DNA of 64,000 bases from an uncultured Rhizobiaceae bacterium. Its GTDB lineage: Bacteria > Pseudomonadota > Alphaproteobacteria > UBA828. A program made the position numbers and the translations under genes. Of this stretch, positions 18,380 through 56,323 are shown one piece after another. The stretch is taken from assembly GCA_964429775.1 (NCBI GenBank), contig CAYSDJ010000001.1:157615-221614 (forward strand). The letters are read 5' to 3'. The notes beneath the pieces are model-generated. The model saw only the letters and a list, made by a program, of their open reading frames with translations. It ran no database searches and was not told the origin of the DNA. Position 1 is the stretch's first letter. Each line of letters begins with the position of its first letter.

Positions 18380-19061
18380 CCGCGAGATCACCCTTGACGC
18401 AATAGGCTGTCGGCGTTGGGCTGGCAGCGAGAATCTTGAGCCGTGGCGGGTGTTCGAGGGTGGCAAAGACCTCGTCCACCGCATCCGATTCGCCCCAGCG
18501 TCCAACCGCATATTCATCGAACACGGCGATGCCGCCAGCCACGATGCGCGGCCAGGCAGCGGCAAGAAGTTTCGCCGTCGGCAAATACACATCTAAATCG
18601 CAGTGCAGCAGGTTGATGCGAAAACCCGGATTGTCGGCCAGGTAGCGTGGAAATTCGCTGACGATATCGCCCTTGATCAGCTCGACCCGATGGCTCAGGC
18701 CAAGGCGGTCGAGCGCCGCCACGAGATTGTCATAGGCACTGGCATCATAGCTGGTCTGGTGAATATCGACGGCGTCACGCTCGTCCGCCCGGGCATGGCT
18801 GAATTCTTCCTCAAAGGTATCGAAAGCAATGATTTTAGTGCGCGAATTGGGCTGGTAGGTTTCCAGCAAATGCGCCCATAGAATGGTACTCGTCCCTTTA
18901 TACACACCGGCATCGACGATATCGCCGGGCACATCCATGACCATGCGAAACAGATCGTAGCGGGCAAACATTTTCTGGAAGCGATGTTTGTCGCAATGAA
19001 AATAGAACTTGTGGTACACCTCCCACATATCCGTATCGAAGGGATCGGATTCCTTACTCAT
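18369..19061 (-). CDS. TylF/MycF/NovP-family O-methyltransferase
   Basis: GDIVDAGVYKG, FDTFE, LLHCDLDVY, GGIAVFDEY. Confidence 0.85.
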   Translation of the reverse strand: MSKESDPFDTDMWEVYHKFYFHCDKHRFQKMFARYDLFRMVMDVPGDIVDAGVYKGTSTILWAHLLETYQPNSRTKIIAFDTFEEEFSHARADERDAVDIHQTSYDASAYDNLVAALDRLGLSHRVELIKGDIVSEFPRYLADNPGFRINLLHCDLDVYLPTAKLLAAAWPRIVAGGIAVFDEYAVGRWGESDAVDEVFATLEHPPRLKILAASPTPTAYCVKGDLADEG

Positions 19062-20728
19062 ACTGTGTGTTCCATTCGTTCTGGCGCCCAATGCCCAATA
19101 TCATTCTGCTCATCATCGATACCCTGCGCTATGACCGTATGGGCATCTCCGGTTATCGTCCGGCGGTAACGCCGAATCTCGACGAGCTGGCGACCGGTGG
19201 AATCAATTGTTCCAATTATTTTTCCAATGGCTGCGTCACGAGTTTCGCCTTCCCCGGCATGTTCACTTCGTCCCTGCCGTTTGACTTCGGCGGCTATGAT
19301 GACGGTATCCGCCACCGCCCGGTTTCTTTCCCGGAGCTTCTCCAGCAAGACGGCTTCGAGACCTACGGCCTGGTGACCGGCCACCCGTGCTCGTCGCACT
19401 TCGGCTACGACCGTGGCTTCGAACATTTTCTCGACCTGATCGATCTTTACCAATGGTTCCGCTCGATCTATGTCGCCGCCCTCGACGAGCTCATATCCTC
19501 GTGGCAGGCGGGGGAAATCAGCGAAGCCGAATTGATGGCCATCTTCGTGCCCAAATTCAGCCGTGTTTTGGACGACACGGAAACATTTATCACCGCTCTT
19601 AACGCCGCCGGGGCGCCGCGCAGCGGCCGTCCCCGGATGCCGTTGTTGACGGCTGTGCGGGCCGAGCGCAAATTGCTCGAAACGGCCCCTGGCGCCTGCC
19701 TCGAAAAGATTGTCGCGCTCAAATCCGATTACCAATTTGCCCTCGGTGAGAACGGGCTGAGTCGCCGCACGGCGCGGCGCATCGAGCGGCGCAAAAAGCT
19801 GTTCAAACGCTTCAACAAACGCATTCACCTGCTTTCCAACCGGCGCGCTTTCGATGCGGGCACCGTCAACAGGCAGTTCAACAATTTTTTGACAAGACGT
19901 TCGGAGCGGCCGTTTTTCGCCCTGCTGCACTATTTCGATTTGCATGAGGCCAAGCTGCAGATCTCCAAATTGTTGGCCCACCCGACGCCGGGGCGGATCA
20001 GCGGCGGCATTTGCGCCTACCGTCGTATCACCAAGGGGCGCCCGACCGAACAGCGCGGCGTTCTTTACGATATGGGGCTCGCCCTGGTCGATGAGCAGCT
20101 CGGCGAACTGCGCCGTATTCTGACGCGGCACGACGTATCCGAGGATACCGCTATCGTCATCACCGGCGATCACGGCACCGAGGCCGGCGCACCGCATCGC
20201 GGCCTCGGCAGCAATCTGCCGCGCCTGTTCTATGACGAGCACCTTCATGTTCCGCTCATTGTGAACGGTCCTGGTATCGCACCGGAGACCATCGATGCGC
20301 TCTCGAGCCACCTCGACTTGGCGCCGACCATCCTCGATACCGCCGGCATCGCGACACCGGATGTCTTTCAGGGCTTGCCGATCCGGGCGCGGCGCGCACA
20401 CCCCGAAACGCTGGTGTGGAGCGAAAATGCCGGCCTCGGGCGCTGCAATATCGCCACCAAGCCGCTTTATATGAGCGTGCGCTCCGTCAATCACCGCAGC
20501 ATCGTGCGGGCGGAGAATTTCGTCCCGGAACTGCGCGAATTTTACGACCTGCAAAATGATCCTTTCGCTAAGGACAATCTCGCCGGCGGCGATAAATTCA
20601 TGGACGTCCGCGAGTCTCACTTGGCCGCTATCCGGAGCCGGTTGGAAAAGCTGCACGCCCAATCGGGCGAACAAAGCGCGGAATAATTCGTCAATCGCCT
20701 CATTCTGAAAATACTGCCTGCCCGGCAT
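19058..20728 (-). other. Candidate bridge ORF antisense to the sulfatase-like gene
   Basis: Stop-free frame; its TGA overlaps the TylF-like ATG (ATGA 19058-19061); an ATG at 20728 lies inside the end of the PK-Sat gene. No recognisable protein motifs. Confidence 0.3.
19091..20686 (+). CDS. Sulfatase-like hydrolase/transferase (alkaline phosphatase superfamily), inverted relative to its neighbours
   Basis: MPNIILLIIDTLRYD, TPNLD, HYFDLHE, TGDHG, HVPLIV, DLAPTILD, YDLQNDP; no C/S-x-P-x-R motif. Confidence 0.85.
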   Translation: MPNIILLIIDTLRYDRMGISGYRPAVTPNLDELATGGINCSNYFSNGCVTSFAFPGMFTSSLPFDFGGYDDGIRHRPVSFPELLQQDGFETYGLVTGHPCSSHFGYDRGFEHFLDLIDLYQWFRSIYVAALDELISSWQAGEISEAELMAIFVPKFSRVLDDTETFITALNAAGAPRSGRPRMPLLTAVRAERKLLETAPGACLEKIVALKSDYQFALGENGLSRRTARRIERRKKLFKRFNKRIHLLSNRRAFDAGTVNRQFNNFLTRRSERPFFALLHYFDLHEAKLQISKLLAHPTPGRISGGICAYRRITKGRPTEQRGVLYDMGLALVDEQLGELRRILTRHDVSEDTAIVITGDHGTEAGAPHRGLGSNLPRLFYDEHLHVPLIVNGPGIAPETIDALSSHLDLAPTILDTAGIATPDVFQGLPIRARRAHPETLVWSENAGLGRCNIATKPLYMSVRSVNHRSIVRAENFVPELREFYDLQNDPFAKDNLAGGDKFMDVRESHLAAIRSRLEKLHAQSGEQSAE

Positions 20729-22865
20729 TAAGCTCAGCCCGCAGCATGTCTTGAATAATGTCGCGCATGAACCAATCCGGCAGCGCCTGGCCGGCGCGAA
20801 GTGCTGCGCGCATATCGGTTCCGCTAATCGGTTCCAGCGTCTGCGCCGCGTCGAGTGCCACATAGGCCTTGCCTTTCGGGTCATAGCCGATGGCGTCAAA
20901 AAAGATCGGTGTGAGACCGATATCGCCCAGACTGTCGAACAGGGCAGGAATTTCCGCCGCCGCATAAAAATCGCCAACGCCGGTATGATCACGGCCGACG
21001 ATGAAATGTGAGCAACCCATATTCTTACGGCAGAGCGCCGTGAACACCGCCTCACGTGGCCCGGCATAGCGTGAATAGGTAGCGAAGCTGCCGAGCACTA
21101 CCTTACCTTCTGGATAGAGCCCCTGATCGAGCATCATCTGATAGCTGCGCATGATCGGCTCGGGCAGAAAATCACCCGCTTTCTTGGGGCCGATAACCGG
21201 GCTCACATAAAGGCCGTCGGCACCGCTACGCTCCAACGCGCTCAACTGAATATGTTCGTGGACCCGGTGGATGACATTGCGGGTATGAAAGCCGACAACC
21301 CGGTTCCAACCCTTGTGAGAAAAGACAAAACGGGTTTGCGCCGGGGTGAGTTCGAATTGGCGATAGGGCGACGGCAGGCGCGCAATCAAGGTAATGTCGC
21401 CGGCGATCAGAAAGCCGCCGCCGCTGGCCAAGCGTGCCACGCCGGGATGGTCCATCGAAGCGGTGCCGAACCACGGCTCAACCACGGTATCGAAATCGAG
21501 CGGATAGACCTCGGAGATATCGAGCAGCGCATGCGCGACACCTTCTTCGTTCTCAAGCACAATGCGCTCGCCGGGATGAATTTCCCGCGCCCGCGCAGCA
21601 TCGACCTGAAGCACAATTGGCAAGGTCCAGGCAGCGCCCTGCGGCATGCGGTTCTCACGCAACACCGATGTCAGCATTTCCTCAGTCATGAATCCGGTGA
21701 GCGGCGAATAGGTGCCGTGTGCGATCTGTTGGCAATCCATCAGCACATTGCGGTTGACCGTGAGGCGCGCGAGGCGCGCCAGTTCGTCCGCCGCCGGTGC
21801 CTCCTGCTCGCGGTGCACCAACCGGCCGCCATGCGGCTCGACCAGCAACGATGCCGATTCGAGATCATATCCGCCGGCCGCGGCCTCGGGTCCGGCCTCA
21901 TATTCGCGGATCAATTTGACAATCATACTGGCACAGCTGATGGGATGGGCACCGATCGCGGTTTCCGCCGCCAGCACCAGACCATCGACGCCATCGACGA
22001 GCGTGTTATAGACGTCATTGACTTCGGCGCGGGTCGGACCCGGCGCAGTGATCATCGATTCAAGCAAATTGGTCGCCACATATACCTTGCGCCCGGCCAC
22101 CTTGGCGACGCGCACGATATGTTTCTGCAGCGCCGGAATACGCTCAACCGGAAATTCGCGTGACAGGTCACCCCGGTCAATCAACAGGCCGTCGGATTTA
22201 TCAGCGATGGCGGACAGGTTCAGGAGTCCGTTGCGGCATTCGATTTTCGAAATCACGAATGTTTCGTCGCCGACGATTTCGCGGATGGCATCGACGTCCG
22301 ATGCCCTGTTGGCAAAGGATAAGGCGGCGTGTTTGAGGCCTTTCTCGCGACCGATACGGAGCGCTGCACAATCCTTTTCACTGAGTGGCGGCATGTCGAT
22401 CGGGCGCTCTACCGTGACCGCCTTGTTCTGGCCGATCATGCCACCGGTCAAAACCCGCATCATGGCGCCAGCCGCCGTTATCTCGATTACCTGCACCAGC
22501 ACTGCATTAAAATCGATGCTGACAAAATCACCGACTTCAAGCGAATCGACTATGCCATGGGGATAAAGGCTGAACGCCTGAGCATCGCCCGTCACCGCCT
22601 CGCGCCGGGCGCAGATCACAGCACTCTCCGGCACTGAGACACTGCCTTCCGAAAGGCTTCCGGTGCGAATTTGCGCGCCCTCGCTGTCGAGGCATACCGG
22701 CACGCTGCTGTGCGACTGAATAAAGTCGATGACTTCGGCTACATCCTCAACCCTGGTGTGCGAAAGATTTATGCGGAATAAAGTCGCACCCAGTTCTTCG
22801 AGGCGCGCCAAAACCCGTTTGTTCATCGAAGCGGGACCAATGGTGCAGAAAATTTCTTTAGGCAT
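20700..22865 (-). CDS. Pyruvate kinase-like domain fused to ATP sulfurylase (sulfate adenylyltransferase)
   Basis: PK part: CTIGPAS, RINLSH, ISKIE, RGDL, ATNLLESM...PTRAE. Sat part: PHGGRL, YSPLTGFM, FHTRNVIHRVHE, RYAGPREA, HFIVGRDH, ISGT. Confidence 0.85.
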   Translation of the reverse strand: MPKEIFCTIGPASMNKRVLARLEELGATLFRINLSHTRVEDVAEVIDFIQSHSSVPVCLDSEGAQIRTGSLSEGSVSVPESAVICARREAVTGDAQAFSLYPHGIVDSLEVGDFVSIDFNAVLVQVIEITAAGAMMRVLTGGMIGQNKAVTVERPIDMPPLSEKDCAALRIGREKGLKHAALSFANRASDVDAIREIVGDETFVISKIECRNGLLNLSAIADKSDGLLIDRGDLSREFPVERIPALQKHIVRVAKVAGRKVYVATNLLESMITAPGPTRAEVNDVYNTLVDGVDGLVLAAETAIGAHPISCASMIVKLIREYEAGPEAAAGGYDLESASLLVEPHGGRLVHREQEAPAADELARLARLTVNRNVLMDCQQIAHGTYSPLTGFMTEEMLTSVLRENRMPQGAAWTLPIVLQVDAARAREIHPGERIVLENEEGVAHALLDISEVYPLDFDTVVEPWFGTASMDHPGVARLASGGGFLIAGDITLIARLPSPYRQFELTPAQTRFVFSHKGWNRVVGFHTRNVIHRVHEHIQLSALERSGADGLYVSPVIGPKKAGDFLPEPIMRSYQMMLDQGLYPEGKVVLGSFATYSRYAGPREAVFTALCRKNMGCSHFIVGRDHTGVGDFYAAAEIPALFDSLGDIGLTPIFFDAIGYDPKGKAYVALDAAQTLEPISGTDMRAALRAGQALPDWFMRDIIQDMLRAELNAGQAVFSE

Positions 22866-23643
22866 ATTGCTCGCTTTTAGTCTTGGGTGGATTGATGAGA
22901 GCGCCAAAAGGAGCGCTTTTGGTGGCGCCGTGTCGGATATGGTTGATATTTCCGATTTCAGGATAAGCGGCGAGAACCGTGAGTACCGCGTCCATGGAAT
23001 AACCTATTGGACCGTGCGGAAGATGGACGAACAAGGCCTCAAAGAAGGCATAGTCCTCAGGATAGTCCAGGGTCCAGCGGCTGTGATCCGGAAGGCCAGG
23101 CGGCGCCTCCAGATTCACGCGGGAAAGATCTTCCTTCTCGCGCATCCAAGGCGAAACATGCTCGCGTTCAAAGGCGCGTTTTGCTTTGGCATCAGCGGCG
23201 CCCAATGCGGCTCGTGTAAAGGCTTCGCAATCCAGTCCGTGCGGCCACGAAGCGGGCATGTTGTTGGCCGCATAATTGGCGCCGGTTTGTGAGCGCAGAT
23301 CGAGTAGCGCGCCGCAAATTGCTGGATCAATTGCCGGGCAATCGCTCGTCACGCGCAGCACCACATCTGCGTTTGCCGCATGCGCCGCGCCGGCATAGCG
23401 CGCCAGTACATCCTCGGCCGAACCGCGATAAACCGAGGCGCCGTGGCGCTCCGCTTCCTCCGCCACAACATCGTCTTCCGTCAGATTCGTCGTCGCGCAA
23501 CACACGCCGCCAACACCCGGCACGGCGGCGAGGCGCGTCAGCACATGACCGAGCACGCTTTGCCCCGCCAGCGGCAGCAATATTTTTCCGGGCAGGCGCG
23601 TTGATCCCATGCGCGCCTGAACGATTGCGATCGTCCGGCCCAT
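22858..23643 (-). CDS. SpsF/PseF-like cytidylyltransferase
   Basis: IVQARMGSTRLPGK, RVTSDCP, REHV, RWTLDYPED. Confidence 0.85.
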   Translation of the reverse strand: MGRTIAIVQARMGSTRLPGKILLPLAGQSVLGHVLTRLAAVPGVGGVCCATTNLTEDDVVAEEAERHGASVYRGSAEDVLARYAGAAHAANADVVLRVTSDCPAIDPAICGALLDLRSQTGANYAANNMPASWPHGLDCEAFTRAALGAADAKAKRAFEREHVSPWMREKEDLSRVNLEAPPGLPDHSRWTLDYPEDYAFFEALFVHLPHGPIGYSMDAVLTVLAAYPEIGNINHIRHGATKSAPFGALINPPKTKSEQYA

Positions 23644-24845
23644 CAGATTACGCAAGCAAGCACAGCATCGATCACCCGATCGCAATCGGCATCGCTCATC
23701 GCCGGAAAAAGCGGAATGGTCAGCGCGGCATCGTAATAGGCTTCGGATTGAGGAAAATCGCCGCGTTTGTAGCCAAATTTATCACGATAATAAGGCTGCA
23801 GATGAAGCGGGATATAATGCACATGCACGCCGATCCTGCGGGTACGAATTTCCTCAAATATCTGGCGCCGGCTTTTGCTCAATTTGTCGAGCCTGAGACG
23901 CAACATATAGAGATGCCAGGCGCTCTCCCGGTCGCCCTCTTGATGCGGCGGAACAAGCAGTTCCGATTGGCCAAAGGCGGCGCTGTAACGCGCCGCGATC
24001 TCGCGCCGCCGTGCGAGAAAGCCGTCGAGCTTGGTCAATTGGCTGAGACCAAGCGCGCATTGAATATCGGTGATGCGGTAATTGAAGCCAAGCTCCTGCA
24101 TCTCGTAATACCACGGCGCGCGGTCCGCCGCGTTGGCTTCGCCGTGCCCCACATTGTCCCTGTCCGCCGCCTGATCGGAGAGACGCATGGCGGCATCGTT
24201 ATTGGTGATGCCGTGGGTGCGGAAGAGGCGCAGCGCCGCCGCAAGTTCGTCGTCGTCGGTGGCGATCAAGCCGCCCTCGCCCATCGCCACATGCTTGACC
24301 GGGTGAAAGGAAAAAATACTCATCGCGGCCAGGGAGCCAACAGGACGGTTCTTGTAAGTCGCGCCGAGTGCGTGGGCGGAATCCTCGATAACCGCGATGC
24401 CGTGGCGCGCGGCAATTTCGTTTATCTCATCCATGTCCGCCGGCTGACCGGTATAATCGATCGGTATGATCGCCTTGGTCCGGGGCGTGATGGCGGCTTC
24501 GAGCTTGGCCGGATCGAGGCAATAGGTGTCGGCGCGGATATCGACAAATTTGACGTCGGCGCCGAGATAAAGCGCACAATTTCCGCTCGCGGCAAAGGTG
24601 ATCGGCGCGGTAATAATTTCATCGCCCGGACCAACGCCGGCGGCATAACAGGCACAATGCAGCGCCGCCGTGCCGGTGGCAACGGCAACGCCGTGCCTGG
24701 CGCCAACCCGCTCGGCAACAGCCGCTTCAAAGGCGGAAATATTTGGCCCCTGTGTCAGCCAATCGCCGCGCAACACCTCCACCACCGCCGCGATATCGTC
24801 CTCGTCAAGGCTTTGACGGGCATAGGGAATAAAAGCTTCGCTCAT
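23643..24845 (-). CDS. pseC: PseC-type sugar aminotransferase
   Basis: IPYARQ, WLTQGP, FSFHPVKH, WYYEMQELGFNYRITDIQCALG. Confidence 0.85.
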   Translation of the reverse strand: MSEAFIPYARQSLDEDDIAAVVEVLRGDWLTQGPNISAFEAAVAERVGARHGVAVATGTAALHCACYAAGVGPGDEIITAPITFAASGNCALYLGADVKFVDIRADTYCLDPAKLEAAITPRTKAIIPIDYTGQPADMDEINEIAARHGIAVIEDSAHALGATYKNRPVGSLAAMSIFSFHPVKHVAMGEGGLIATDDDELAAALRLFRTHGITNNDAAMRLSDQAADRDNVGHGEANAADRAPWYYEMQELGFNYRITDIQCALGLSQLTKLDGFLARRREIAARYSAAFGQSELLVPPHQEGDRESAWHLYMLRLRLDKLSKSRRQIFEEIRTRRIGVHVHYIPLHLQPYYRDKFGYKRGDFPQSEAYYDAALTIPLFPAMSDADCDRVIDAVLACVI

Positions 24846-24867
24846 TTTTCTCTCACACTTCCGGGCT

Positions 24868-26292: not shown

Positions 26293-26322
26293 AATTTCAG
26301 GAGCACGGCGGCACGGAGCGGA

Positions 26323-28631: not shown

Positions 28632-28702
28632 TGTTATTGGTTATTGCGCGTTGGGTTTATGACGTCGCACCGATAGATAATGATACTCGAACGTCCGGGA
28701 AC

Positions 28703-28864: not shown

Positions 28865-28902
28865 ATGGCGAGAAGCGGTTTGTATGCGCCGCGTGTAATG
28901 GC

Positions 28903-33561: not shown

Positions 33562-33574
33562 GAGCTCGATTCCT

Positions 33575-34324
33575 TCAATTTTTTCTCATTTTCCTGGGAT
33601 TAATCTCGTGCCCTTCTTGGGGCAATAATGAAAAGCCGTGCTGTGCGCCCATTGCTTCGGCGATAAGCCAATCTTCCGGCTCATCCAGATCGACCGAGCG
33701 AGCCGCATCCATGATGACCAGGCGCGCCGGATCGGAAATGATCCGGCCCTGGGCGCGGAAGGCGGAAACCCGCGTCGCATAGGCGCCACCGTTCGGCAGA
33801 TAGCAGGTGGGCAGCGATTGGAACACGCCGCGCTCGCCTTCAACCGCACCGTCCATCAAGGGCGTCGCAGCACCGCCATCGTCGAGGGTGAACATCCATT
33901 GCGGCGGCTGGCTGGCGCGCTGGGCGGTAAAACAACATGCCGCGTCGCTGGCCGCGACGCTCTCAACGCAAGCATCGATATGTTCGGGCAGGATGAACGG
34001 CGTGGTCGGCTGTAGCGTCACGACAATGTCATACGCCTGACCTTCGTCGGCCTCGGCCCAATCGAGCGCGTGGCGCGTGACATGCTCGGTCGGCACATCC
34101 TCGGCAAGTTCAGCCGGCCGTCGAAACGGCACATCGACACCATATTGCCGAGCGGCGGTGGCAATCTCATCGTCATCGGTGGAGAGAATGACGCGGCTTA
34201 ATCCGCTTGCCAGGGCGGCGCGGCCGCCATAAGCGATCAACGGGTGGCCCAATAGAGATTTCACATTCTTGCCCGGAATTCGGGTCGATCCGCCACGCGC
34301 CAGCAATATTCCAAGACTGCGCAT
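33575..34324 (-). CDS. neuA: CMP-nonulosonic acid synthetase (NeuA/LegF)
   Basis: LARGGSTRIPGKN, STDD, VPFRRP, LQPTTP, NGGAY, SVDLD. Confidence 0.9.
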   Translation of the reverse strand: MRSLGILLARGGSTRIPGKNVKSLLGHPLIAYGGRAALASGLSRVILSTDDDEIATAARQYGVDVPFRRPAELAEDVPTEHVTRHALDWAEADEGQAYDIVVTLQPTTPFILPEHIDACVESVAASDAACCFTAQRASQPPQWMFTLDDGGAATPLMDGAVEGERGVFQSLPTCYLPNGGAYATRVSAFRAQGRIISDPARLVIMDAARSVDLDEPEDWLIAEAMGAQHGFSLLPQEGHEINPRKMRKN

Positions 34325-35775
34325 TATCTGCCGCGCCCCTCGCGCGCGCTTGGTTGCGCGACGCCAACGCGGCCCTGGCTGTGGCCGGAATGTTCGTTAA
34401 AAACAGCTTCGGGCGCGGCGGCAAGCGCGTCACGGGCGGCCACCGTCTTGCGCACGGCCCGGCCGATATCGCGCATATCCTCGGCCGTCGACGCATGGGC
34501 AATATGATAAAACCAGATAAAGCGCTCATAGAGCAGCGCCTCGGCAACCGGGCACATGCCGGGCGCATAGGCCGCGCCGCCGCGATAGAAATCCGAGGTC
34601 CACGGGCAGCCTTCATCGCCATAGGCGATTTGTTTCATGAAGATCGGATTTTCATAAAGCGTGCGCGGATAGCCGGTGCCGACCGGCACGCCCTCGGCGC
34701 GCAGCGCCGCAACAAAGCGGTCGCGCGATATGCCCATGGCGGCATCATCAAACAGTGCGGCAAAGACATGCGGCACCTCGCGCGCCAGGCCGCCCTCGGC
34801 GCGCTGGCTTGGGGCAGCGGTGAGGCCGGGCAGATTGGCCAGCTCCTGGCGCAGGATATCGGCATTTTGGGTGCGCCACTCATTGACCAAATCGAGCTTG
34901 GCCAACTGCGCCCGGCCGAGCGCCGCCGAAAGCTCCGGCAGGCGCGCATTGAGGCCGATAATGTTGGCTATATCCTGCGCACTCGCCGCATCGTCAAAAG
35001 CCACCTCGCCATGATTGAGAATGAGACGTGCGCGGCGCGCGATCTCGCTGTCGTGGGTGACGATCATGCCGCCTTCGCCGGTCATGATATTCTTCGATTG
35101 CTGAAAGCTGAACACACCGGCATCACCCAGAGTGCCCGCCTTGGCATCCCGCCAGTGCGCGCCCGGTGCCTGCGCCGCATCCTCGATCACTATCAAGCCG
35201 TGCCGTTTGGCGATATCCAGAAGCGCATCCATATTGGCCACATTGCCAAGCAGGTGAACCGGAAGGATGGCTTTGGTGGCGGGCGTAATGGCTGCTTCCA
35301 CCGCCGCCGGGTCGAGACAAAAGCTCAACGGATCGACATCGGCAAATACCGGAATGGCGTTGAACAGAAGAATTGCGCTTGCTGTCGCGCTAAACGAAAT
35401 GGCGGGCAAAATCACTTCATCGCCGGGCTGAATGCCGGCGGCACCGAGAGCGACCGAAAGTCCGGTGGTGGCCGAGCTCACCGGCACAGCAAACGGGACG
35501 TCAAAATAGGCGGCAAATTCAGCCGCGAAGGTGCGCACATTGGGACCGCCAAGAAAATGCCAGTCGGCCTCGATCTCTGCCGCTTCGGCACTGGACAGGC
35601 GCAAGGCGGTTTCGAGATCGGGCGAATGGGAGCCGATGTAGCGCGAAAAATTCTTTTCGCGGATCGCCGCCAGGACAAGACGCTCCTCATTTTCATCAAT
35701 CATCGGCTCGACCACAAAGGGACGGGTGCGCTCCGGCGTACCGCCGAGAATGGCCGGCAGCGGGTTGTTGCTCAT
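34324..35775 (-). CDS. DegT/DnrJ PLP aminotransferase (additional, substrate unknown)
   Basis: IEDAAQA, FSFQQSKNIMTGEGG, NHGE. Confidence 0.85.
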   Translation of the reverse strand: MSNNPLPAILGGTPERTRPFVVEPMIDENEERLVLAAIREKNFSRYIGSHSPDLETALRLSSAEAAEIEADWHFLGGPNVRTFAAEFAAYFDVPFAVPVSSATTGLSVALGAAGIQPGDEVILPAISFSATASAILLFNAIPVFADVDPLSFCLDPAAVEAAITPATKAILPVHLLGNVANMDALLDIAKRHGLIVIEDAAQAPGAHWRDAKAGTLGDAGVFSFQQSKNIMTGEGGMIVTHDSEIARRARLILNHGEVAFDDAASAQDIANIIGLNARLPELSAALGRAQLAKLDLVNEWRTQNADILRQELANLPGLTAAPSQRAEGGLAREVPHVFAALFDDAAMGISRDRFVAALRAEGVPVGTGYPRTLYENPIFMKQIAYGDEGCPWTSDFYRGGAAYAPGMCPVAEALLYERFIWFYHIAHASTAEDMRDIGRAVRKTVAARDALAAAPEAVFNEHSGHSQGRVGVAQPSAREGRGR

Positions 35776-41695: not shown

Positions 41696-41740
41696 GACCG
41701 GCTTTCGAAACGCTTTTGAGGGAGTGCGGTAGACATCAAA

Positions 41741-42304
41741 TTAGAACGACGAGTTGGGCTCGCTCAGGAAGGCAATTTCCTCGGCCGTGCTGTCGCGGCC
41801 GAGTACCGCGTTGCGATGCGGAAAGCGGCCGAAGCGGACGATGATTTCCTGATGGCGCAGGGTGTATTCGAAGGTCTTGTCATCTTCGAGCGTGCGGAAC
41901 AGTTCGACCGAGCGCGCTTGGTCCGCAAGGTTTTCGCTGTGCTGCAGGGGCATATAGAGGAAGCGCCGCTCGTCCGCATTCATGCCGCTATCGAAGCCGC
42001 GCGCCAGCGCGTGATCCATAACCTCGCGCGCCTGGTTGTCCGCAGCAAAGGCGCGCGCATCATCGCGAAAGAGATTGCGCGAGAATTGATCGAGCAGGAT
42101 GATCTCAGCGAGACAACCGCCCGGCGTCTCGCGCCACTCAGAGAGCGCACCGGCCACCGCCCTTTCGTGCAAAGCCGAAAATCTGCCGCGAATCTCATCG
42201 TCCAAGTCATCATCGCGCACGAACCATTTATCGGGGCCGACCTGCAAAAGCCAGAAATCGAGCACGGCGCGAATTTCGGTGTTTTCGGCTGATGAATGGC
42301 TCAT
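41741..42304 (-). CDS. DUF924 family protein
   Basis: LAEIILLDQFSRNLFR, FLYMPLQHSE, RFGRFPHRNAVLGR. Confidence 0.9.
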   Translation of the reverse strand: MSHSSAENTEIRAVLDFWLLQVGPDKWFVRDDDLDDEIRGRFSALHERAVAGALSEWRETPGGCLAEIILLDQFSRNLFRDDARAFAADNQAREVMDHALARGFDSGMNADERRFLYMPLQHSENLADQARSVELFRTLEDDKTFEYTLRHQEIIVRFGRFPHRNAVLGRDSTAEEIAFLSEPNSSF

Positions 42305-42654
42305 GCCGTGTGCCCGGAGCGAATAGAAAGGGTTTCGAGCAAAGCGAAATGGCGCCGTAGTGCGCCGGCAATTAAGCCAATCAACGGCAAGGCGATTATC
42401 GTCGAGATCAAGCGGCGCAATCTGAACGAGCCGTCATAATAGCTCGGATTGGTCACCGATTTCAGCCGCTCCAAGGTCAAATCCTGGCAGCTGCCGATGT
42501 GCCGTTTGAGCGCGCGGCGATGGAACCATGGCCAGCGCAAGCGGAGGTGGTCGGGAATTGGCGCGCCGAACAGACCACCCAACGCGCGGTGCAGCGGCCC
42601 GTCGCCCACTTCACGCGGCCTTTTGTTGGCTGCATTGATCTCCGCCCAGCTCAT
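42301..42654 (-). CDS. Hypothetical protein, possibly a gene remnant
   Basis: 117 aa, ATGA-coupled at both ends, one hydrophobic segment, no recognised family. Confidence 0.45.
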   Translation of the reverse strand: MSWAEINAANKRPREVGDGPLHRALGGLFGAPIPDHLRLRWPWFHRRALKRHIGSCQDLTLERLKSVTNPSYYDGSFRLRRLISTIIALPLIGLIAGALRRHFALLETLSIRSGHTA

Positions 42655-43745
42655 CCCGACACGAGCCCAGTGGACGGATTGGAAGCAGGTGTGATATGAG
42701 CGCGGCCATGATCGGGACCAATAACGGCCTTGACGGCAAGCGCGTGTTTCTCACCGGCGCCGATGGGTTCATCGGCTCGCATCTGGCGGAGGCGCTGGTG
42801 CGGAGCGGCGCCAAGGTGACGGCGCTGGCGCTTTACAACTCCTTCGGCACTTGCGGCTGGCTCGACGAGGTCGGCGAAGATGTGCGCGCCGAAATGCATA
42901 TCGAACTCGGCGATGTGCGCGACGGCGCGCAGATGCGCAGCTTCGCCGAAGGCAGCGATATCATCTTTCACCTCGCTGCCCTGATCGCCATTCCCTATTC
43001 CTACGTCGCTGCTGCTTCCTGCGTCGATGTCAATGTTCACGGCACGCTCAATATGCTCGAGGCGGCGCGCGCCGGCACCGCCGGTCGCTTCATCCACACT
43101 TCGACGAGCGAGGTTTACGGCTCTGCGCTTCAACGGCCGATCAGCGAGGACCATCCCCTGCACGGGCAATCGCCCTATGCCGCGAGCAAGATCGGCGCCG
43201 ACCAGATGGTCGAGGCTTTCGCCCGCTCGCACGACACACCCGCCGTCACGCTGCGGCCGTTCAACACCTTCGGGCCGCGCCAAAGCGAGCGCGCGATCAT
43301 CCCGACTGCGATCCGCCAGATGCTCGACCCGGCCTGCGCCGAGATCCGCCTCGGCGATCTCAGCACGACGCGTGATTTCACCTTTGTCGGCGATACGGTG
43401 CGTGCCTTCATGGCGCTTGGTGCGGCTGAGGATGCGGAGTTCGGCACCGTCTACAATGCCGGCACCGGCGTCGAAACCGAGATCGGCGCGGTCATCAACT
43501 TGCTCAATGAGTTGACCGGCAACAACAAAGCGATCGTTGCCGAGAGCGCCCGCCTGCGCCCGGAAAATTCCGAGGTGCGCGCCCTGGTCGCCGATGCGAC
43601 GCGCCTCGGCGCGCTCTCCGGCTGGCGCCCCGAGACCGACCTTCATGCCGGTCTCGGCCATTGCGTCGACTGGTGGCGCGAGCGCATCGCGAGCGGCCGG
43701 CAACGCCGCGACACGGATTTCGCGCGTTAAATTCTTGGCCTTCAT
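42651..43745 (-). other. Candidate bridge ORF antisense to legB
   Basis: ATG overlaps the rmlA stop (43742-43745); TGA overlaps the next ATG (42651-42654); no protein motifs. Confidence 0.35.
42696..43730 (+). CDS. legB: NDP-GlcNAc 4,6-dehydratase, LegB-type, inverted relative to its neighbours
   Basis: TGADGFIGSHL, YNSFG, HLAALIAIPYSY, TSTSEVYG, QSPYAASK, RPFNTFGPRQSERA. Confidence 0.88.
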   Translation: MSAAMIGTNNGLDGKRVFLTGADGFIGSHLAEALVRSGAKVTALALYNSFGTCGWLDEVGEDVRAEMHIELGDVRDGAQMRSFAEGSDIIFHLAALIAIPYSYVAAASCVDVNVHGTLNMLEAARAGTAGRFIHTSTSEVYGSALQRPISEDHPLHGQSPYAASKIGADQMVEAFARSHDTPAVTLRPFNTFGPRQSERAIIPTAIRQMLDPACAEIRLGDLSTTRDFTFVGDTVRAFMALGAAEDAEFGTVYNAGTGVETEIGAVINLLNELTGNNKAIVAESARLRPENSEVRALVADATRLGALSGWRPETDLHAGLGHCVDWWRERIASGRQRRDTDFAR

Positions 43746-44683
43746 TCCGGCCCCTTGCCGGCAACGTCGCGCGGCGATGCCTGCACGTCGTCGCTGAGAT
43801 AGGCGCTTGCGCCGTCGCCGAGAGAAGCGAGATAGCGGCCATAATCGCTGCCCGACATTTCCGCCGCCAACTCGGCAAGCCGCGCGGCATCGATCAAACC
43901 GCGGCGGAAGGCAATTTCCTCCGGACAGGCAATCTTGAGGCCCTGCCGGTTTTCAACCGTGGCAACGAAATTACCGGCTTCGAGCAGTGATTCATGGGTG
44001 CCCATGTCGAGCCAGGCGACGCCCCGGCCGAGCACATTGACACGCAATCCGCCTTCTTCGAGATAGGCCTGATTGATGCTGGTGATTTCCAATTCACCAC
44101 GCGCCGAGGGTTCGATGCTGCGCACCATGTCGCACACCCGGCTGTCGTAATAATAGAGCCCGGTCACGGCATAGGATGAGCGCGGCGCCTCGGGTTTTTC
44201 CTCGATGCTGACCACGGCGCCCGATTCGTCAAATTCAACAACGCCATAGGCTTCCGGCTGCTTGACGTAATAGGCAAAGAGATTGGCGGTGGCATATTCC
44301 ATGCGCGCCGCCTGACGCAGCATACGGCCAAAACCTTCGCCATAATAAATATTGTCGCCGAGGATGAGGGCGACCGATTCGCCGGCGATGAAATCCTCGC
44401 CGATAATGAAGGCCTCGGCGATGCCGCGCGGCGCGGCCTGGGTCGCGTAGCGCAGCGAGATTCCCCATTGGGAGCCGTCGCCGAGCAAGGACTCGAACAA
44501 TTGCCGCTCCTCGGGCCGGGTGATGATCAGAATGTCGGCGATGTCGGCCAGCATCAAGGTGCTGAGCGGGTAATAGATCATCGGTTTGTCATATACCGGC
44601 AGCAATTGTTTGCTGACACTGCGCGTGGTCGGCGCCAGGCGGGTGCCGCTGCCGCCGGCCAAAATGATGCCTTTTCTGATCAT
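43742..44683 (-). CDS. rmlA: Glucose-1-phosphate thymidylyltransferase
   Basis: [44 protein letters not shown]. Confidence 0.95.
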
Positions 44684-45786: not shown

Positions 45787-46403
45787 GTGCCGCTCTCCGG
45801 CGAGCGCTCGACATGCAGCAAATGCGGCGTCAAGACGCGCGCCGGCGGCAGGATTTCGATGAGCCCGTCATAGACCGCCTGCGGTTCATTGAAATCGGTA
45901 ACGATGACGGCGTCGGGGCGCTCGAGCGCGCCGAACTCAGCCACCACCGGCAAATCTAGGATGTGCTCGCCATTCTCGGCGCCGGCGATTACGCCTTGCA
46001 GCACGATATCATGTTCGCGCGCCGACAGGATGGCGATCTCGGCCAGCTCGCCGGCGCCGGCCAGGGCCAAGTGCCGCCAGCCATTGGCAACGCAATGCTC
46101 GTAAATCTCGCCATATTGGTTGCGCGAACGGCGGAAGAATGTGAGCGAATCGGAGAGATATTCGGCCGTCAGGCGCGTCTTTTCGGTGAAACCCTGCGGC
46201 GTGAGGTAATAGGCGTAGCGATTGGGCGGAATTTCGCTGATTTTGATCAAACCCTTGCGCACGCAGCGGCGCACATAAGTGTTGGTCATGCCAAGCGCAA
46301 TGCCCAGTTCCTTGGCCAAAGTGCGCTGATTGACATGCTCCGATTCGCCGACGCGAACCAGAATATCGCGCATGATCTCGTCTTCGCGCGCCTTACGGCT
46401 CAT
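45783..46403 (-). CDS. EPS-associated MarR/winged-helix regulator with C-terminal Rossmann-like domain
   Basis: [38 protein letters not shown]. Confidence 0.85.
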
Positions 46404-46592
46404 TTCAGGAACCTAGGTGAGCGATCATGCACGACTCTTCTGTGCGTGCGCTTATGATTCATTAACATATTGATATAATTGGAATTTCCAGACGCTACCG
46501 CCGTTCCGGGTGCAGCCATAACAGCCCGGTCGGAAGCGCTTCAGGGTGCCAAATTCCGGCCCTCACTTAGGCCCGGCGGAAGCTTCTTTTTC

Positions 46593-46678
46593 ACCGGCGT
46601 TCAAACTGTGAACGCCGGTAGTGAGCCTATCGTTCATGGATTGAACAGCGAATCAAGAAGTTTGTTCAAATATTGAAC
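46593..46678. promoter_or_regulatory. Three phased GTTCA-N5-TGAAC palindromes in the divergent marR/pepM intergenic region
   Basis: Sites at 46599-46613, 46632-46646 and 46664-46678; the first extends to an 11-bp-arm inverted repeat (46593-46619). Confidence 0.75.
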
Positions 46679-46788
46679 GCCGTGGGAAAATCACAACATA
46701 ATCGGCGCCACCGCATGCTTCGGGCATTTTCTCGCCAGATTCGGCGTGTTACGATTCCGAATCGGGTCAGACTTATAGAATTGAGCAA

Positions 46789-48477
46789 TTGATGGCGACG
46801 AAATTGGACGGCGTGCCAGGCGGAGAAGCGCCCGCGGCGGAAGCGCCGCGCTCGAAAGCGCAAATGCTGAAGCATGCGCTCGAAAAAGCGGAGCTCGCCT
46901 TCATCATGGAGGCGCATAACGGCCTCTCGGCGAAAGTGGTCGAGGAAGCCGGATTCGAAGGCATTTGGGCCTCAGGCCTCTCCATGTCGGCGGCACTCGG
47001 CGTGCGCGACAATAACGAAGCCTCCTGGACCCAGGTGCTCGAACAGCTCGAATTCATGGCCGATGCCACCGCCATCCCGATTTTGGTTGATGGCGACACG
47101 GGATATGGCAATTTCAACAATGTCCGCCGCCTGGTGAAAAAACTGTGCCAGCGCGGTATTGCCGGCGTGTGCATCGAGGACAAGCTCTTTCCCAAAACCA
47201 ACTCCTTCATCGGCGAAGGTCAACCGCTCGCCGATATGGAGGAATTTTCCGGCCGTATCAAAGCCGGCAAGGACAGCCAGGACGACGCCGATTTTCAGCT
47301 CATCGCCCGTGTCGAGGCGCTGATATCGGGATGGGGCATGGACGAGGCACTGCGCCGCGCCGAGGCCTATCACGCCGCCGGCGCCGACGGCATCCTGATC
47401 CACTCGAAAAAAGCCGACGCCGACGAAATCCTCGCCTTCAGCAAGGAATGGGCCGGGCGGGCGCCGCTGGTGATCGTACCCACCATGTATTACAGCACCC
47501 CGACCGATGCTTTCCGCCAGGCCGATATTTCGCTGGTGATCTGGGCCAACCATAATTTACGCGCGTCCTTGAGCGCCATGCGCGACACCAGCCGGCGCAT
47601 CATGGAAGAACAATCGCTGGGTTCGGTCGAGGGTGCTGTCGCCAGCGTCAAGGAAGTGTTCAATATTGTCGGCCAGGGCGAATTAGCCGCCGCCGAAGCG
47701 CGCTACCTGAAGCCCAAGGGCGGCGATCACAAGGCCATCGTACTCGCCGCCTCGCGCGGCTCGGCGCTCGGGCCGCTGACCGAACGCCTGCCCAAATGCA
47801 TGCTCGATATTCGCGGCCAGCCGCTGCTGCACCGCCTCATCACCACGCTCGGCGAAGGCGGCATCAGCGACATCAGCGTGGTGCGCGGCTACAAGAAGGA
47901 AACAATCGATCTGGCCAAGGTGCGCAACCTCGACAATGACGATTTCGCCGACAGCGGCGAAGCGGCCTCATTGGCCTGCGCGGCCGAGCAATTGGACGGC
48001 CCCGCTATCCTCTCTTACGGCGATATCCTGTTTCGCGGCCATATTCTGGAAAACCTGCTCAGCGCCGAAAGCGATATTTGCGTTGTCGTCGATGCCCGTT
48101 GGCGCGGCGGCGAAAGCCGCGCGGCGGAACGCACGGTCGATCTGGTGCAGTGCAGCCGACCCTTCACCGGCGATTATCTCGACGAAGAACCGGTGCGACT
48201 GAACGCCATCCTTTCCGGCGGCGACAGTGCGGATAATATCGGCGAGCCGTCCGGCGAATTTATCGGCTTGATAAAACTTAGCGCGCGCGGCGCCGAGCTC
48301 GTGCGGCGAGAGCTGGACGAAATGGCAGCGGACGGATCGCTCAACAAGGCCGACCTGCCGACCCTGCTCAACCGCCTGATCGCGCGCGGCGAACAGATCG
48401 AGGCGCTCTATATCACCGGCCATTGGCTGGACGTGGACGATGCCTTCGACCTGGCCAAGGCGCGCAATCTGGTCTGA
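46789..48477 (+). CDS. pepM: Phosphoenolpyruvate mutase fused to a C-terminal nucleotidyltransferase
   Basis: PepM signature [25 protein letters not shown]; C-terminal IVLAAS...PKCML, YGDILF, WLDVD. Confidence 0.93.
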
Positions 48478-48490
48478 TCCGGCACAGCGC

Positions 48491-49627
48491 ATGATTTCAG
48501 CAGACGATTTTCTAAGGCCGGCGAGCGCACGCGGATTCGATTTTTATTGCGGCGTGCCATGCTCTTTTCTCACGCCGCTCATTAACCGGGTCATTTCGGA
48601 CCCGAAGCTCGACTATGTCGGCGCCGCGAGCGAAGGCGAGGCGGTGGCGATCGCCGCCGGCGCCTGGCTGGCCGGACGCAAAAGCGTGGCGATGTGCCAG
48701 AATTCCGGTCTCGGCAATATGATCAATCCGCTGACCTCGCTCAATTGGCCGTTCCGCATCCCGGGCCTGATCATCGTCACCTGGCGCGGCCAGGCCGGAC
48801 TCAAGGACGAGCCGCAGCATGAGTTGATGGGCGAGATTACCGCCGGGATGCTGGACGTCATCCGCGTCCCGCACGCGCCCTTCCCGACGGAGGTAAGCCA
48901 GATTGAGGCCACCCTGGAGAACGCCGAAAACAGCATGGCGAAGACCGGCCTGCCATATGCCCTGATCATGGAGAAGGGTTCGGTGGCGGCGGAAACGCTC
49001 GATCAACCGCCGCCGCCGGCGCCACCCTCGGGCGAACTCGAGGACCGCAGCGGTGGCGGCGAACGCCCGGCCCGCGCGGCGGCGCTAGAGGCCGTGCTCG
49101 CATCCGCCCCCGATGAGGCCGCCATCATCGCCACCACGGGAAAAACCGGGCGCGAATTGTTCACCCTCAACGACCGTCCCCAACAAATCTATCAGGTCGG
49201 CTCGATGGGCTGCGCCGGTGCCATGGGATTGGGCGTGGCGCTCAACAGCACACGCCCGGTGATCGTCATCGACGGCGACGGTGCGGCGCTGATGAAAATG
49301 GGCGCGCTCGCCACCATCGGCGCTTACGCGCCGGAGAATCTTGTGCATCTCATTTTCGACAATGGCGTGCATGATTCGACCGGTGGCCAGGCCACGGTCT
49401 CGCCCGGCGTCTCCTTTGCCGCCGCCGCCCAGGCCTGCGGCTACCGGACAAGCTATCTGTGCGATTCACTGGCCGGCTTTGAAGAGAGCTTGCGCGATGC
49501 CCTGGCGGCAGCGAAACCGGCCCTCATTCACCTCCGCACCGCGCCCGGCGCGATGAGCCCGCTCGGCCGCCCAACGGTCAAGCCGGCCGATGTGGCGCGC
49601 CGGTTTCAGAAATTCCTCGCCTCATGA
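48491..49627 (+). CDS. ppd: Phosphonopyruvate decarboxylase (single chain)
   Basis: GVPCS, EGEAVA, QNSGLGN, DEPQH, GSMG, DGDGAALM...N (TPP motif), STGGQ. Confidence 0.92.
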   Translation: MISADDFLRPASARGFDFYCGVPCSFLTPLINRVISDPKLDYVGAASEGEAVAIAAGAWLAGRKSVAMCQNSGLGNMINPLTSLNWPFRIPGLIIVTWRGQAGLKDEPQHELMGEITAGMLDVIRVPHAPFPTEVSQIEATLENAENSMAKTGLPYALIMEKGSVAAETLDQPPPPAPPSGELEDRSGGGERPARAAALEAVLASAPDEAAIIATTGKTGRELFTLNDRPQQIYQVGSMGCAGAMGLGVALNSTRPVIVIDGDGAALMKMGALATIGAYAPENLVHLIFDNGVHDSTGGQATVSPGVSFAAAAQACGYRTSYLCDSLAGFEESLRDALAAAKPALIHLRTAPGAMSPLGRPTVKPADVARRFQKFLAS

Positions 49628-50247
49628 CCGGTTCAGATCGGCTCGACATCGCCGCCTTCGACGGACACACGCACCTCGCGGCCCATCAGTTTCAACAGGA
49701 TCAGCACCCGGTCGGAATCAAGCTCGGCCTGAAACACGCCCTCAAGATCGGCCATCGGCCCGCTCTGAATACGCACCTGATCGCCCGGCTCCATGGCGCT
49801 CTGCATAATGTCGAAAACGCCGTCATCGCCGGCTCGGGCAACAAGCCCGGCAATGATATCGTCGCCGATGGCGACAGGGCCATCGGCGCCGGAAACGATG
49901 TTGTGGACGCCGAATGTCGAGAGGATGGGCCGCCACGGCTGACTGTCGAGATCGACGCGGACGAACAGATAGCGCGGAAAAAGCGGCCGCAACACGCTTT
50001 CGACGCGGCGCGCATGACGCCGGGTCTTGCGGTACATCGGCAACCAGACCTCATATTCCTGGCGCAACAGATTGGTCTCGGCGCGTTTCTCCGAACCGAC
50101 ACGGCAATGGACCACGTACCATTGTCTCATAAAGCTGCCAATCCGCCTTTCCCTCTCCATAGCCGCCATCGCGGCGACATGTTATCTAGCTTGCACAGCC
50201 TGATCCGAGTAAACTCCGCTGGGCGCGCAATCAAGTTATATTCATGA
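49624..50247 (+). other. Candidate bridge ORF antisense to rfaH
   Basis: ATG overlaps the ppd stop (49624-49627); TGA overlaps the next ATG (50244-50247); stays open through a 113-bp spacer. Confidence 0.35.
49633..50130 (-). CDS. rfaH: NusG-paralog transcription antiterminator (RfaH-like), inverted relative to its neighbours
   Basis: WYVVH, NLLRQEYEVWLP, PLFPRYLFV, STFGV, KOW motif GDQVRIQSGP. Confidence 0.85.
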   Translation of the reverse strand: MRQWYVVHCRVGSEKRAETNLLRQEYEVWLPMYRKTRRHARRVESVLRPLFPRYLFVRVDLDSQPWRPILSTFGVHNIVSGADGPVAIGDDIIAGLVARAGDDGVFDIMQSAMEPGDQVRIQSGPMADLEGVFQAELDSDRVLILLKLMGREVRVSVEGGDVEPI

Positions 50248-56212: not shown

Positions 56213-56323
56213 CGTTTTTGCACCACTTCAGAGGCAAGCGCCGGGCCGGCGATTGACGTGCGGCGGGGGCGGGCGGTAGGTTCGGCCTCGAGCCCTTCAA
56301 ACCCCTCTGAGCCCGCGACGCGC

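Follow-up and report, generated by a model that had tools for sequence, protein, structure and literature searches.

Stop-free antisense reading frames spanning inverted operon genes in an uncultured Rhizobiaceae bacterium as candidate ribosome relays

In a 64,000-nucleotide (nt) stretch of the genome of an uncultured Rhizobiaceae bacterium (hereafter the window), single genes lie inverted within runs of co-directional genes and are spanned, on the operon strand, by stop-free open reading frames (ORFs) that are codon-aligned and antisense to them. We refer to such an ORF as a bridge, running from the upstream (U) to the downstream (D) operon gene, and to the TTA, CTA and TCA codons of the inverted gene as antisense stops. 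At a sulfatase gene and a LegB-like dehydratase gene (legB) the inverted gene avoids these codons, and the register and junctions of the bridge (at the sulfatase, the downstream junction) are conserved among relatives; the same signature was found at two loci outside the initial choice, cobD and a methyltransferase gene at the window edge. On balance, we favour the reading that at these four loci the bridge would be a translated ribosome relay across the backward gene. This is the proposal of a preliminary description of the same DNA, narrowed to a few loci, and it is the most economical reading.

The window occupies positions 157615–221614 of contig 1 (G000:C1) in a 4.19-Mb draft genome of 60% GC, for which a home-made caller gave 3691 genes, with boundaries that match those of the preliminary description. 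G000 denotes the genome itself, G001 and so on the genomes of relatives, and L-numbers individual sequence regions. Three antisense ORFs had been singled out, and all three are present as claimed (Table 1); the genes beneath them, encoding a sulfatase, a LegB-like dehydratase and an RfaH-like protein, are real by their Pfam and NCBIfam scores, and each is spanned by the stop-free frame. Five in-register ATGA overlaps (19058–61, 42651–54, 43742–45, 49624–27 and 50244–47) were confirmed by reading the sequence, as were the five spacers (29, 41, 11, 5 and 113 nt) and the three convergent gaps (13, 11 and 5 nt); by locus, convergent/divergent gaps are 13/29 nt (sulfatase), 11/41 nt (legB) and 5/113 nt (rfaH). 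A sixth junction, at 20700–03, is also ATGA, but out of register. At all three loci the opposite-strand gene is embedded between co-directional genes, which is the layout of a noncontiguous operon. The overlap of an upstream stop with a downstream start is also seen in relatives, and no Shine-Dalgarno sequence is evident by eye before four downstream ATGs in the genome itself. Searches of the three window bridge ORFs against Pfam and NCBIfam gave no family match, and promoter and terminator scans returned counts at shuffle level and were thus uninformative. The window holds two more singly inverted genes, one without a bridge (54839–56212, minus strand) and one with a bridge (1–511, plus strand).

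Avoidance of antisense stops and conservation of junctions

A model based on the Leu/Ser codons of a gene, and on how often it uses other four-fold codons ending in A, gave the number of TTA, CTA and TCA codons to expect in it; nine relatives were scored in this way for the orthologues of every gene in the window. Overall, these orthologues carry 492 antisense stops against 540 expected, with 4 against 19.7 for legB (three of the four from the non-inverted G028 copy) and 3 against 15.5 for the sulfatase. As a Poisson model taken from the genome itself, however, this was miscalibrated for individual relatives (ratios 0.29–1.64, dispersion 1.46), and per-genome codon-family expectations were used instead; 143 control orthologue entries then gave 459 observed against 478 expected. 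In the uncorrected counts, the two genes are the most depleted of 44 families with orthologues. In the distant relatives, divergence at four-fold sites approaches saturation (control identity 0.42–0.49), which makes the codon choices of these genomes almost independent.

The openness of the legB antisense frame in the genome itself is unremarkable (P0 0.42), because the gene uses A-ending four-fold codons only once in 165. We therefore rejected that open frame as evidence, and the case for legB comes only from lower-GC relatives. The clearest evidence, for legB as for the sulfatase, lies in direct codon counts. In four of these relatives (G009, G001, G016 and G004), legB uses TTA in 0/13, CTA in 0/94 and TCA in 1/54 cases, compared with 20%, 8.5% and 16.4% in control genes of the same genomes. 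GTA (8/109), ACA (13/102), GCA (17/162) and ATA (3/71) are near control rates, other A-ending codons as a whole occurring at ~0.7 times the control rate. Five same-genus genomes hold one antisense stop against 11.7 expected (P 1e-4), and seven genomes, with the closest relative G006 and the non-inverted G028 left out, one against 18.4 (overdispersion-corrected P 3.5e-6). Where legB is not singly inverted, it carries three (G028) and two to four (G025) TTA/CTA/TCA codons. Four-fold identity of legB is slightly above that of its flanks, for which stronger codon bias could account.

The junctions of the legB bridge persist as its surroundings change. ATGA is present at both ends in G006; in G002 the U stop reads GTGA with a convergent gap of 5 nt rather than 11; and in G007 the upstream ATGA is present and the bridge stop shares one base with the next ATG. 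In another genus, G016 has gaps of 32 and 44 nt and a different D gene, with ATGA at both ends, and in a third genus G020 has other flanking genes and a one-base overlap upstream. In G004 the U gene is a decaying remnant; its frame continues into that antisense to legB and terminates at the DUF924 gene, on its ATGA. The junctions are thus kept with convergent gaps of 11, 5, 32 and 8 nt and divergent gaps of 41, 47, 68 and 44 nt. As the preliminary description had suggested should be checked, spacers at legB and at the sulfatase shift in relatives by multiples of three.

Two further features of this locus may be recorded. In L018 of G004 (operon strand, 1295–2714), the nucleotidyltransferase upstream of legB is a pseudogene, consisting of a 10-codon stub followed by an ATGA-linked 462-aa ORF in which gene remnants are fused in frame with the legB antisense frame. 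In the genome itself, the 117-aa ORF after the bridge is what an internal in-frame deletion of 168 codons left of a class I methyltransferase; the full 285-aa version survives in G006, G002 and G007. The remnant retains ATGA at both ends, as though nothing but its linking function within the coupled chain had been preserved.

The sulfatase frame, in contrast to that of legB, is unusually open already in the genome itself (4.0 stops expected, P0 about 0.018–0.03). Across four genomes its orthologues use CTA in 0/204 and TCA in 0/78 cases (together 0/282 against ~11 expected) and TTA in 3/37, with other A-ending codons at control level. L227, whose GC content at third codon positions (GC3) is 0.65, has no antisense stop, where its flanks predict 5.9. 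In 8/8 assessable sequences the TylF-like methyltransferase gene has its ATG at the end of the antisense frame, L228 stopping at a contig edge. That junction reads ATGA in the genome itself, G007, G002, G028, L224, L225 and L226, and GTGA in L227, and the divergent spacers (29, 65, 65, 80, 29, 65, 29 and 47 nt) are all 3n+2. The second codon of the TylF-like gene varies (AGT, AAC, AGA, ACC), its first base being A throughout. Nine sulfatase sequences contain 11 antisense stops, six at codons 512–522, the entry end of the bridge, and five mid-gene. A candidate start is a conserved in-frame GTG/ATG ~66 nt inside the sulfatase 3′ end (in the genome itself, G007 and G002); further in-frame ATGs of this bridge ORF lie within U1. 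Sulfatase orthologues occur in 3/48 other order-level genomes, to which a metagenome scan added five close and three distant copies. Synonymous constraint beyond the flanks was not seen in the sulfatase, where four-fold identity equals that of the flanks. Taken together, these sequence comparisons lend moderate support to a sulfatase bridge.

The three loci of the preliminary description came out of a very large scan and are thus a selected sample; this does not apply to the relatives, to the controls or to an out-of-sample set made up of the genome's other junction-positive loci and intended negative controls. In this set, cobD lies inverted between cobQ and cbiX: in 10 relatives 0/514 Leu/Ser-family codons are TTA, CTA or TCA, against 23.3 expected from flanks, and in six more distant genomes 2/290 against 13.3, both in G027, which is also without the junction. 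The antisense frame is fully open in 15/16 genomes, down to 51% protein identity, complete genomes such as G010 and G018 being among the open ones. In most genomes its end coincides with the cbiX start, as ATGA, GTGA or TTGA, or is at most 5 nt away. At the other end, 13/16 genomes have an in-frame start 8 nt ahead of the cobQ stop, preceded at 7 nt by GGAG; it remains a start codon where the cobQ codon differs (CAT gives ATG; GTT gives TTG). The cobQ–cobD convergent gap takes values of 1, 4, 7, 13, 16 and 34 nt, with register kept in each. As in the sulfatase, four-fold identity of cobD equals that of its flanks, showing no synonymous constraint beyond them. In G030 (L218, G030:C51), cobQ and cbiX are co-directional neighbours ~56 nt apart without cobD between them, which fits a single cobQ–cbiX operon in which cobD is embedded elsewhere.

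The window-edge methyltransferase gene, intended as a negative control, proved positive: five genomes hold three antisense stops against 15.9 expected. Its bridge ORF starts at an ATG overlapping the end of the GT4 gene at 508–1527 (ATGCTAG) and terminates, beyond the left edge of the window, in the ATGA of another GT4 gene. Of five relatives, four likewise have ATGA at the end of the frame, and an ATG or TTG lies 4 nt before the upstream stop in 6/6 genomes. Four-fold identity is slightly above flanks in 3/5 genomes; again, stronger codon bias could account for this.

Neither co-directional genes nor most other inverted genes behave in this way. Four co-directional genes with zero antisense stops in the genome itself showed 5 against 3.3, 3 against 3.2, 6 against 5.8 and 4 against 2.4 expected in two to three relatives, and a fifth (34324–35775) showed 0 against 0.95 in one relative, which is uninformative. 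Seven tested inverted genes, all real genes, are undepleted: rfaH, the Wzy-like gene (14 against 18.4), C61 (18 against 16.1), AspRS (34 against 33.3), Protoglobin (11 against 11.0), GST (2 against 1.0) and SDR (0 against 0.4, one relative). Depletion ratios are bimodal, being either near 1 or at most 0.2. Divergent gaps are 26–59 nt at the depleted loci and >110 nt at most undepleted ones.

The preliminary description had raised the possibility of a general device, and this was not borne out genome-wide. Of 366 singly inverted genes, 50 (13.7%) have an open aligned antisense frame, where codon models predict 61–64, compared with 296/1815 (16.3%) co-directional genes. The junctions fared better when counted against a null of other reading frames: an in-register stop/start overlap with D occurs in 8/50 open aligned frames, 17/316 closed aligned frames and 51/729 other frames, an excess (Fisher P 0.012–0.018) that amounts to about five loci. 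Counting called gene starts, there are two upstream and four downstream in-register junctions, and three of the five loci involved lie in the window. An apparent genome-wide excess of 3n+2 convergent gaps was discarded as an artefact of shared stop overlaps, since among gaps of 0–30 nt that class is the rarest (55/218); 101/512 convergent pairs overlap by 4 nt through shared stops (CTAG, TTAA, CTAA, TTAG), which skews gap statistics modulo three. Three candidate further bridges, oriented with their operons, were noted at C50 (7451–7951), C30 (8300–9082) and C19 (33940–34692), where the aligned frame over the inverted gene is open and its stop codon shares bases with a GTG or TTG that is in the frame of D.

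At rfaH, the relay proposal did not hold. It had stood at legB and, more weakly, at the sulfatase, where stops are avoided in relatives and register is kept, whereas the depletion anticipated for rfaH is absent, with 16 against 13.1, 12 against 9.5 and 11 against 7.3 antisense stops. Openness in the genome itself is unremarkable here too (P0 0.42), the gene using few A-ending codons. The order of the phosphonopyruvate-decarboxylase-like gene, inverted rfaH and the LPG_synthase_TM gene is conserved at 10 loci, of which only three have the bridge with both ATGAs: that of the genome itself, G006 (89% DNA identity) and G003 (82%). At the remaining seven the U stop is TAA or TAG, and the aligned frame is broken in five and ends early in two. 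Indels of +6 and –3 in G003 preserve the frame, a weak hint only, and the 113-nt divergent spacer has space for promoters. The rfaH bridge is thus probably the product of chance and GC-rich codon usage, or very young.

Table 1. Inverted genes, bridge ORFs and flanking genes (window positions unless stated; aa, amino acids)
Feature	Position	Strand	Size or score	Remarks
Sulfatase, inverted gene 1	19091–20686	+	531 codons; Pfam Sulfatase 132.9 bits	0 TTA/CTA/TCA
Bridge ORF 1	19058–21067	−	669 aa (longest form)	TGA on next ATG (ATGA 19058–19061); start uncertain
D1, TylF-like methyltransferase	18369–19061	−		Start ATG within ATGA; Shine-Dalgarno not evident
U1, pyruvate-kinase-barrel/ATP-sulfurylase fusion	20700–22865	−		Stop is ATGA, out of register with bridge
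LegB-like NAD-dependent 4,6-dehydratase, inverted gene 2	42696–43730	+	344 codons	SDR domains; 0 TTA/CTA/TCA
Bridge ORF 2	42651–43745	−	364 aa	ATG on U2 stop (ATGA 43742–45); TGA on next ATG (ATGA 42651–54)
U2, sugar-phosphate nucleotidyltransferase	43742–44683	−	NTP_transferase, 247 bits	
Methyltransferase remnant	42301–42654	−	117 aa	ATGA-linked at each end
DUF924 gene	41741–42304	−		Next in ATGA chain; directly after bridge in G004, G016
RfaH-like NusG paralogue, inverted gene 3	49633–50130	−	165 codons	NusG family
Bridge ORF 3	49624–50247	+	207 aa	ATGA at both ends
U3, phosphonopyruvate-decarboxylase-like thiamine pyrophosphate enzyme	48491–49627	+		Pfam
D3, LPG_synthase_TM-family membrane protein	50244–51269	+		113 nt from rfaH start
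Wzy/O-antigen-ligase-like, fourth singly inverted gene	54839–56212	−		5 antisense stops, bridge absent; internal negative case
Methyltransferase, fifth inverted gene, 3′ part	1–511 (L180:1137–2087)	+	Methyltransf_23, 36.9 bits	Begins 439 nt left of window
Bridge ORF 4, 5′ part	1–514 (L180:1107–2090)	−	327 aa	ATG at 512–514
cobD/cbiB, inverted between cobQ and cbiX	G000:C3		322 bits	Bridge 469 aa, without family

Genes of the cluster and elements near rfaH

By Pfam, the whole window forms one large cluster for polysaccharide, nonulosonic acid and phosphonate. It includes two NeuB genes and a phosphoenolpyruvate (PEP) mutase/decarboxylase pair; together with the ATP-sulfurylase fusion and the sulfatase, they suggest a sulfated, phosphonylated nonulosonic-acid glycan. 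The fusion gene, which adjoins the sulfatase gene, carries a PUA-like domain in addition. Three DegT/DnrJ/EryC1 aminotransferase paralogues on the minus strand (7478–8596, 23643–24845 and 34324–35775) have open antisense frames here of 372, 400 and 483 codons; those of their orthologues in relatives are closed, so that shadow ORFs in a single genome mean little.

Two of the gene labels are deliberately cautious. The best model for 42696–43730 is LegB TIGR04180, and the gene is termed LegB-like because its score of 386.3 bits falls below the equivalog cut-off of 475, SDR dehydratase domains being clearly matched. Likewise, 49633–50130 is termed RfaH-like because it misses the TIGR01955 equivalog cut-off (131.3 against 144.5 bits); the Pfam NusG N-terminal domain is matched at 82 bits.

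A 9-bp direct repeat, TCATGACCG, flanks rfaH at both junctions (49622–49630 and 50242–50250), and the TCATGA within it is a palindrome. The repeat is kept in G006, and just TCATGA remains in G003. We considered an insertion of rfaH with target-site duplication, and set it aside since 10 genomes have the same synteny and G003 does not preserve the full repeat.

Two ops-like elements, GGCGGTAGCGTc (46491–46502, minus strand) and GGCGGTAGGTTc (56272–56283, plus strand), lie in leaders on the transcribed strand, each with one mismatch to the E. coli ops consensus. The first is 88 nt ahead of the first gene of a long minus-strand operon and the second is ahead of the gene at 56324; overall, seven ops-like hits were found against 4.1 expected by chance. 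In combination with the RfaH-like gene, these elements suggest RfaH-dependent operons.

Proposed relay and alternative explanations

According to the relay reading, an operon transcript would read through the backward gene at legB, the sulfatase, cobD and the window-edge methyltransferase. Ribosomes would initiate at a start overlapping or abutting the U end, as ATGA at legB, ATGyTAG at the methyltransferase and GGAG-N6-GTG at cobD, and would traverse the codon-aligned antisense frame, kept stop-free by selection against TTA, CTA and TCA in the backward gene. Termination at a TGA overlapping the next ATG would then hand ribosomes to D by termination–reinitiation, and the translating ribosomes would keep the antisense RNA covered. 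What would count is translation of the bridge, and not its protein product. Read-through transcription, bridge translation, coupling to D and protection from Rho or RNases are steps that we infer from sequence. The comparisons clearly point to selection on openness and on both ends of the ORF, and not visibly on protein sequence; the lack of extra synonymous constraint in cobD and the sulfatase fits selection on openness only.

Several observations weigh against this reading. At the sulfatase, an in-register start at the U1 stop is absent, so the upstream link there is not an in-register ATGA; the frame is broken mid-gene in G028, L225 and L228; and per-genome calibration leaves the depletion at 3 against 9.8 (P 0.012–0.028). 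At legB, one antisense stop occurs in G009, and in the low-GC genomes G014, G021 and G017 the gene is still singly inverted but contains 8, 12 and 11 antisense stops, respectively, these bridge-less loci having divergent gaps of ~120–135 nt. Bridges are therefore dispensable in some lineages. DUF924 in G016 and G004 has a good Shine-Dalgarno sequence of its own, and the D gene in G020 more likely begins 18 nt past the ATGA; several downstream starts are uncertain. Beyond the depleted loci, C61 has an ATGA junction and a 41-nt gap and yet is undepleted, and among 34 inverted genes with divergent gaps of at most 70 nt, 8 are open against 6.0 expected, with 70 stops against 74, so that tight spacing alone does not predict a bridge. 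A rationale specific to Rho was tried and rejected, as the C/G skew of the antisense RNA fails to separate depleted from undepleted loci, and an RfaH-like factor acting with an ops-like leader element could suppress Rho without any bridge. Finally, the expectations derive from a home-made caller and Poisson models, and the relatives are partly non-independent.

The first alternative is that the bridges are shadow ORFs produced by chance, or pseudo-ambigrams, in which high GC3 makes TTA, CTA and TCA rare and a cluster rich in ATGA yields accidental registers. GC3-driven pseudo-ambigrams are, according to the abstract, the subject of PMC13262655. The openness of legB and rfaH is indeed expected in the genome itself, inverted genes are open no more often than co-directional ones, very many windows were scanned, and ATGA overlaps are dense in this one (~13 of ~44 same-strand pairs, compared with 285/2536 genome-wide). 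With its bridge in a minority of syntenic genomes and its orthologues undepleted, rfaH is best read in this way. At legB, however, only 1/161 stop-generating codons is found in lower-GC relatives in which GTA, ACA, GCA and ATA are normal, and cobD has no antisense stop in 15/16 genomes; for these two genes chance is already contradicted by the codon-specific tests. Nor does it explain why co-directional genes regress to expectation, or how register is kept over at least five gap lengths. As an account of the four loci we consider it unlikely.

A second alternative, that the bridges are genuine overlapping protein-coding genes with functional products, seems to us similarly improbable. The ORFs are long (207–669 aa), their start and stop positions and their openness are conserved, four-fold identity exceeds that of the flanks in legB and, for 3/5 genomes, in the methyltransferase, and overlapping genes of this kind have been reported in print (PMC8850804, PMC9927249). 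On the other hand, the scanned bridge ORFs belong to no Pfam family, nor the three window ones to any NCBIfam family, and cobD and the sulfatase show no synonymous constraint beyond the flanks. Frames are broken in some lineages in which the arrangement is retained, and the four unrelated hosts have only architecture in common. In particular, the bridges run exactly from U end to D start, which counts against a free-standing gene because such a gene need not have these bounds.

The bridge might also be translated to shield the antisense RNA, either from Rho or from pairing with the inverted gene's own mRNA (with RNase III cleavage and mutual exclusion as consequences), and not for ribosome delivery. 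Shielding predicts stop avoidance just as the relay reading does, accommodates the D genes that have their own Shine-Dalgarno sequence, and parallels the idea of ribosome coverage put forward for ambigrammatic narnaviruses, as far as the abstracts of PMC8316113 and PMC8155312 go. Mere coverage, however, would not need a bridge stop placed exactly on the next start codon, as it is in most lineages, and the C/G skew shows no special Rho sites; we therefore regard shielding alone as rather improbable.

Least credible, and in our judgement very improbable, is a historical relic in which genes inserted or flipped into ATGA-coupled operons left functionless junctions: all three U genes end in ATGA (compared with 9/366 genome-wide), the TCATGACCG repeat lies on both sides of rfaH and cobQ adjoins cbiX without cobD in G030, but the rfaH, legB and cobD arrangements are old and common to several genera, the repeat is lost in G003, register and the third-position A before TGA would decay at near-saturated synonymous divergence if unselected, and the continuing avoidance of antisense stops is left unexplained.

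Implications and relation to known systems

If the relay reading is correct, bacteria may possess an 'ambigrammatic' class of genes, in which the codons of a backward operon gene are shaped for a product-less ORF that relays ribosomes between its neighbours; this broader claim we put forward tentatively, as a possibility that we still doubt. Such genes would arise where a backward gene leaves no promoter room for the next gene, and noncontiguous operons would be translated, not just transcribed, over the embedded gene. The needs of the opposite strand could then limit a gene's codon usage, and a synonymous substitution could, through a polar effect, shut down the adjacent gene. Some 'shadow ORFs' of GC-rich genomes would be working operon parts, which annotation pipelines would be discarding systematically as shadows, and a link would exist between bacterial operons and ambigrammatic RNA viruses, whose reverse ORFs are unexplained. 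Genome surveys could use a computable signature, namely depletion of TTA, CTA and TCA relative to other A-ending codons combined with a start at the U end and a stop on the D ATG.

Literature searches at abstract level, covering neither supplements nor subscription journals, found no account of a stop-free relay ORF that crosses an inverted gene and is coupled at its junctions; its elements resemble several known systems. Translational coupling through 4-nt ATGA overlaps is established in operons. As there, the stop of one ORF overlaps the next start, and downstream starts in the genome itself lack a clear Shine-Dalgarno sequence; in contrast, the upstream partner here is the antisense frame of an opposite-strand gene and not a conventional gene. 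A second parallel is RfaH/ops anti-polarity, which acts on the elongation complex in long polysaccharide operons. Both would be devices that let RNA polymerase and ribosomes travel the length of an operon unhindered by Rho-dependent polarity, although a bridge, unlike RfaH, would act via the codon usage of the embedded gene.

In layout, the loci correspond to noncontiguous operons, or excludons, such as menE-menC-MW1733-ytkD-MW1731 of Staphylococcus aureus (atlas PMC11034616, review PMC7154746), which likewise have a lone opposite-strand gene in a co-directional run with spacers too short for terminators. Those operons are described there by transcription and RNase III-mediated mutual regulation, without a stop-free junction-coupled ORF, whereas here the evidence is codon-level selection and a spanning operon transcript is presumed. 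Antisense overlapping genes, such as olg1 and olg2 of P. aeruginosa (PMC8850804) and those of E. coli O157:H7 (PMC9927249), share long ORFs antisense to annotated genes, signs of selection and GC-rich DNA. They are proposed to be protein-coding, with their own promoters and products; in the bridges, product constraint is not visible and the ORF bounds match the neighbouring operon genes.

A further analogy is offered by ambigrammatic narnaviruses, in which, as summarized in abstracts, a reverse ORF extends over the RNA-dependent RNA polymerase gene (PMC8316113, PMC6884476, PMC8155312) and its codon-aligned frame is kept stop-free because the forward gene avoids the complements of stop codons. 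Avoidance beyond composition was likewise found at cobD, legB and the methyltransferase, with a weaker signal at the sulfatase, and not at rfaH. According to the abstract of PMC8155312, the narnavirus reverse ORF does not seem to have a functional protein product, and translation itself seems to be what matters. The narnavirus ORFs run over whole genomes of RNA viruses, whereas each bridge covers one gene of a bacterial chromosomal operon and is tied at both ends to its neighbours by start/stop overlaps. Judged by their sequences, the bridges would work like ambigrams but are not members of the narnavirus group.

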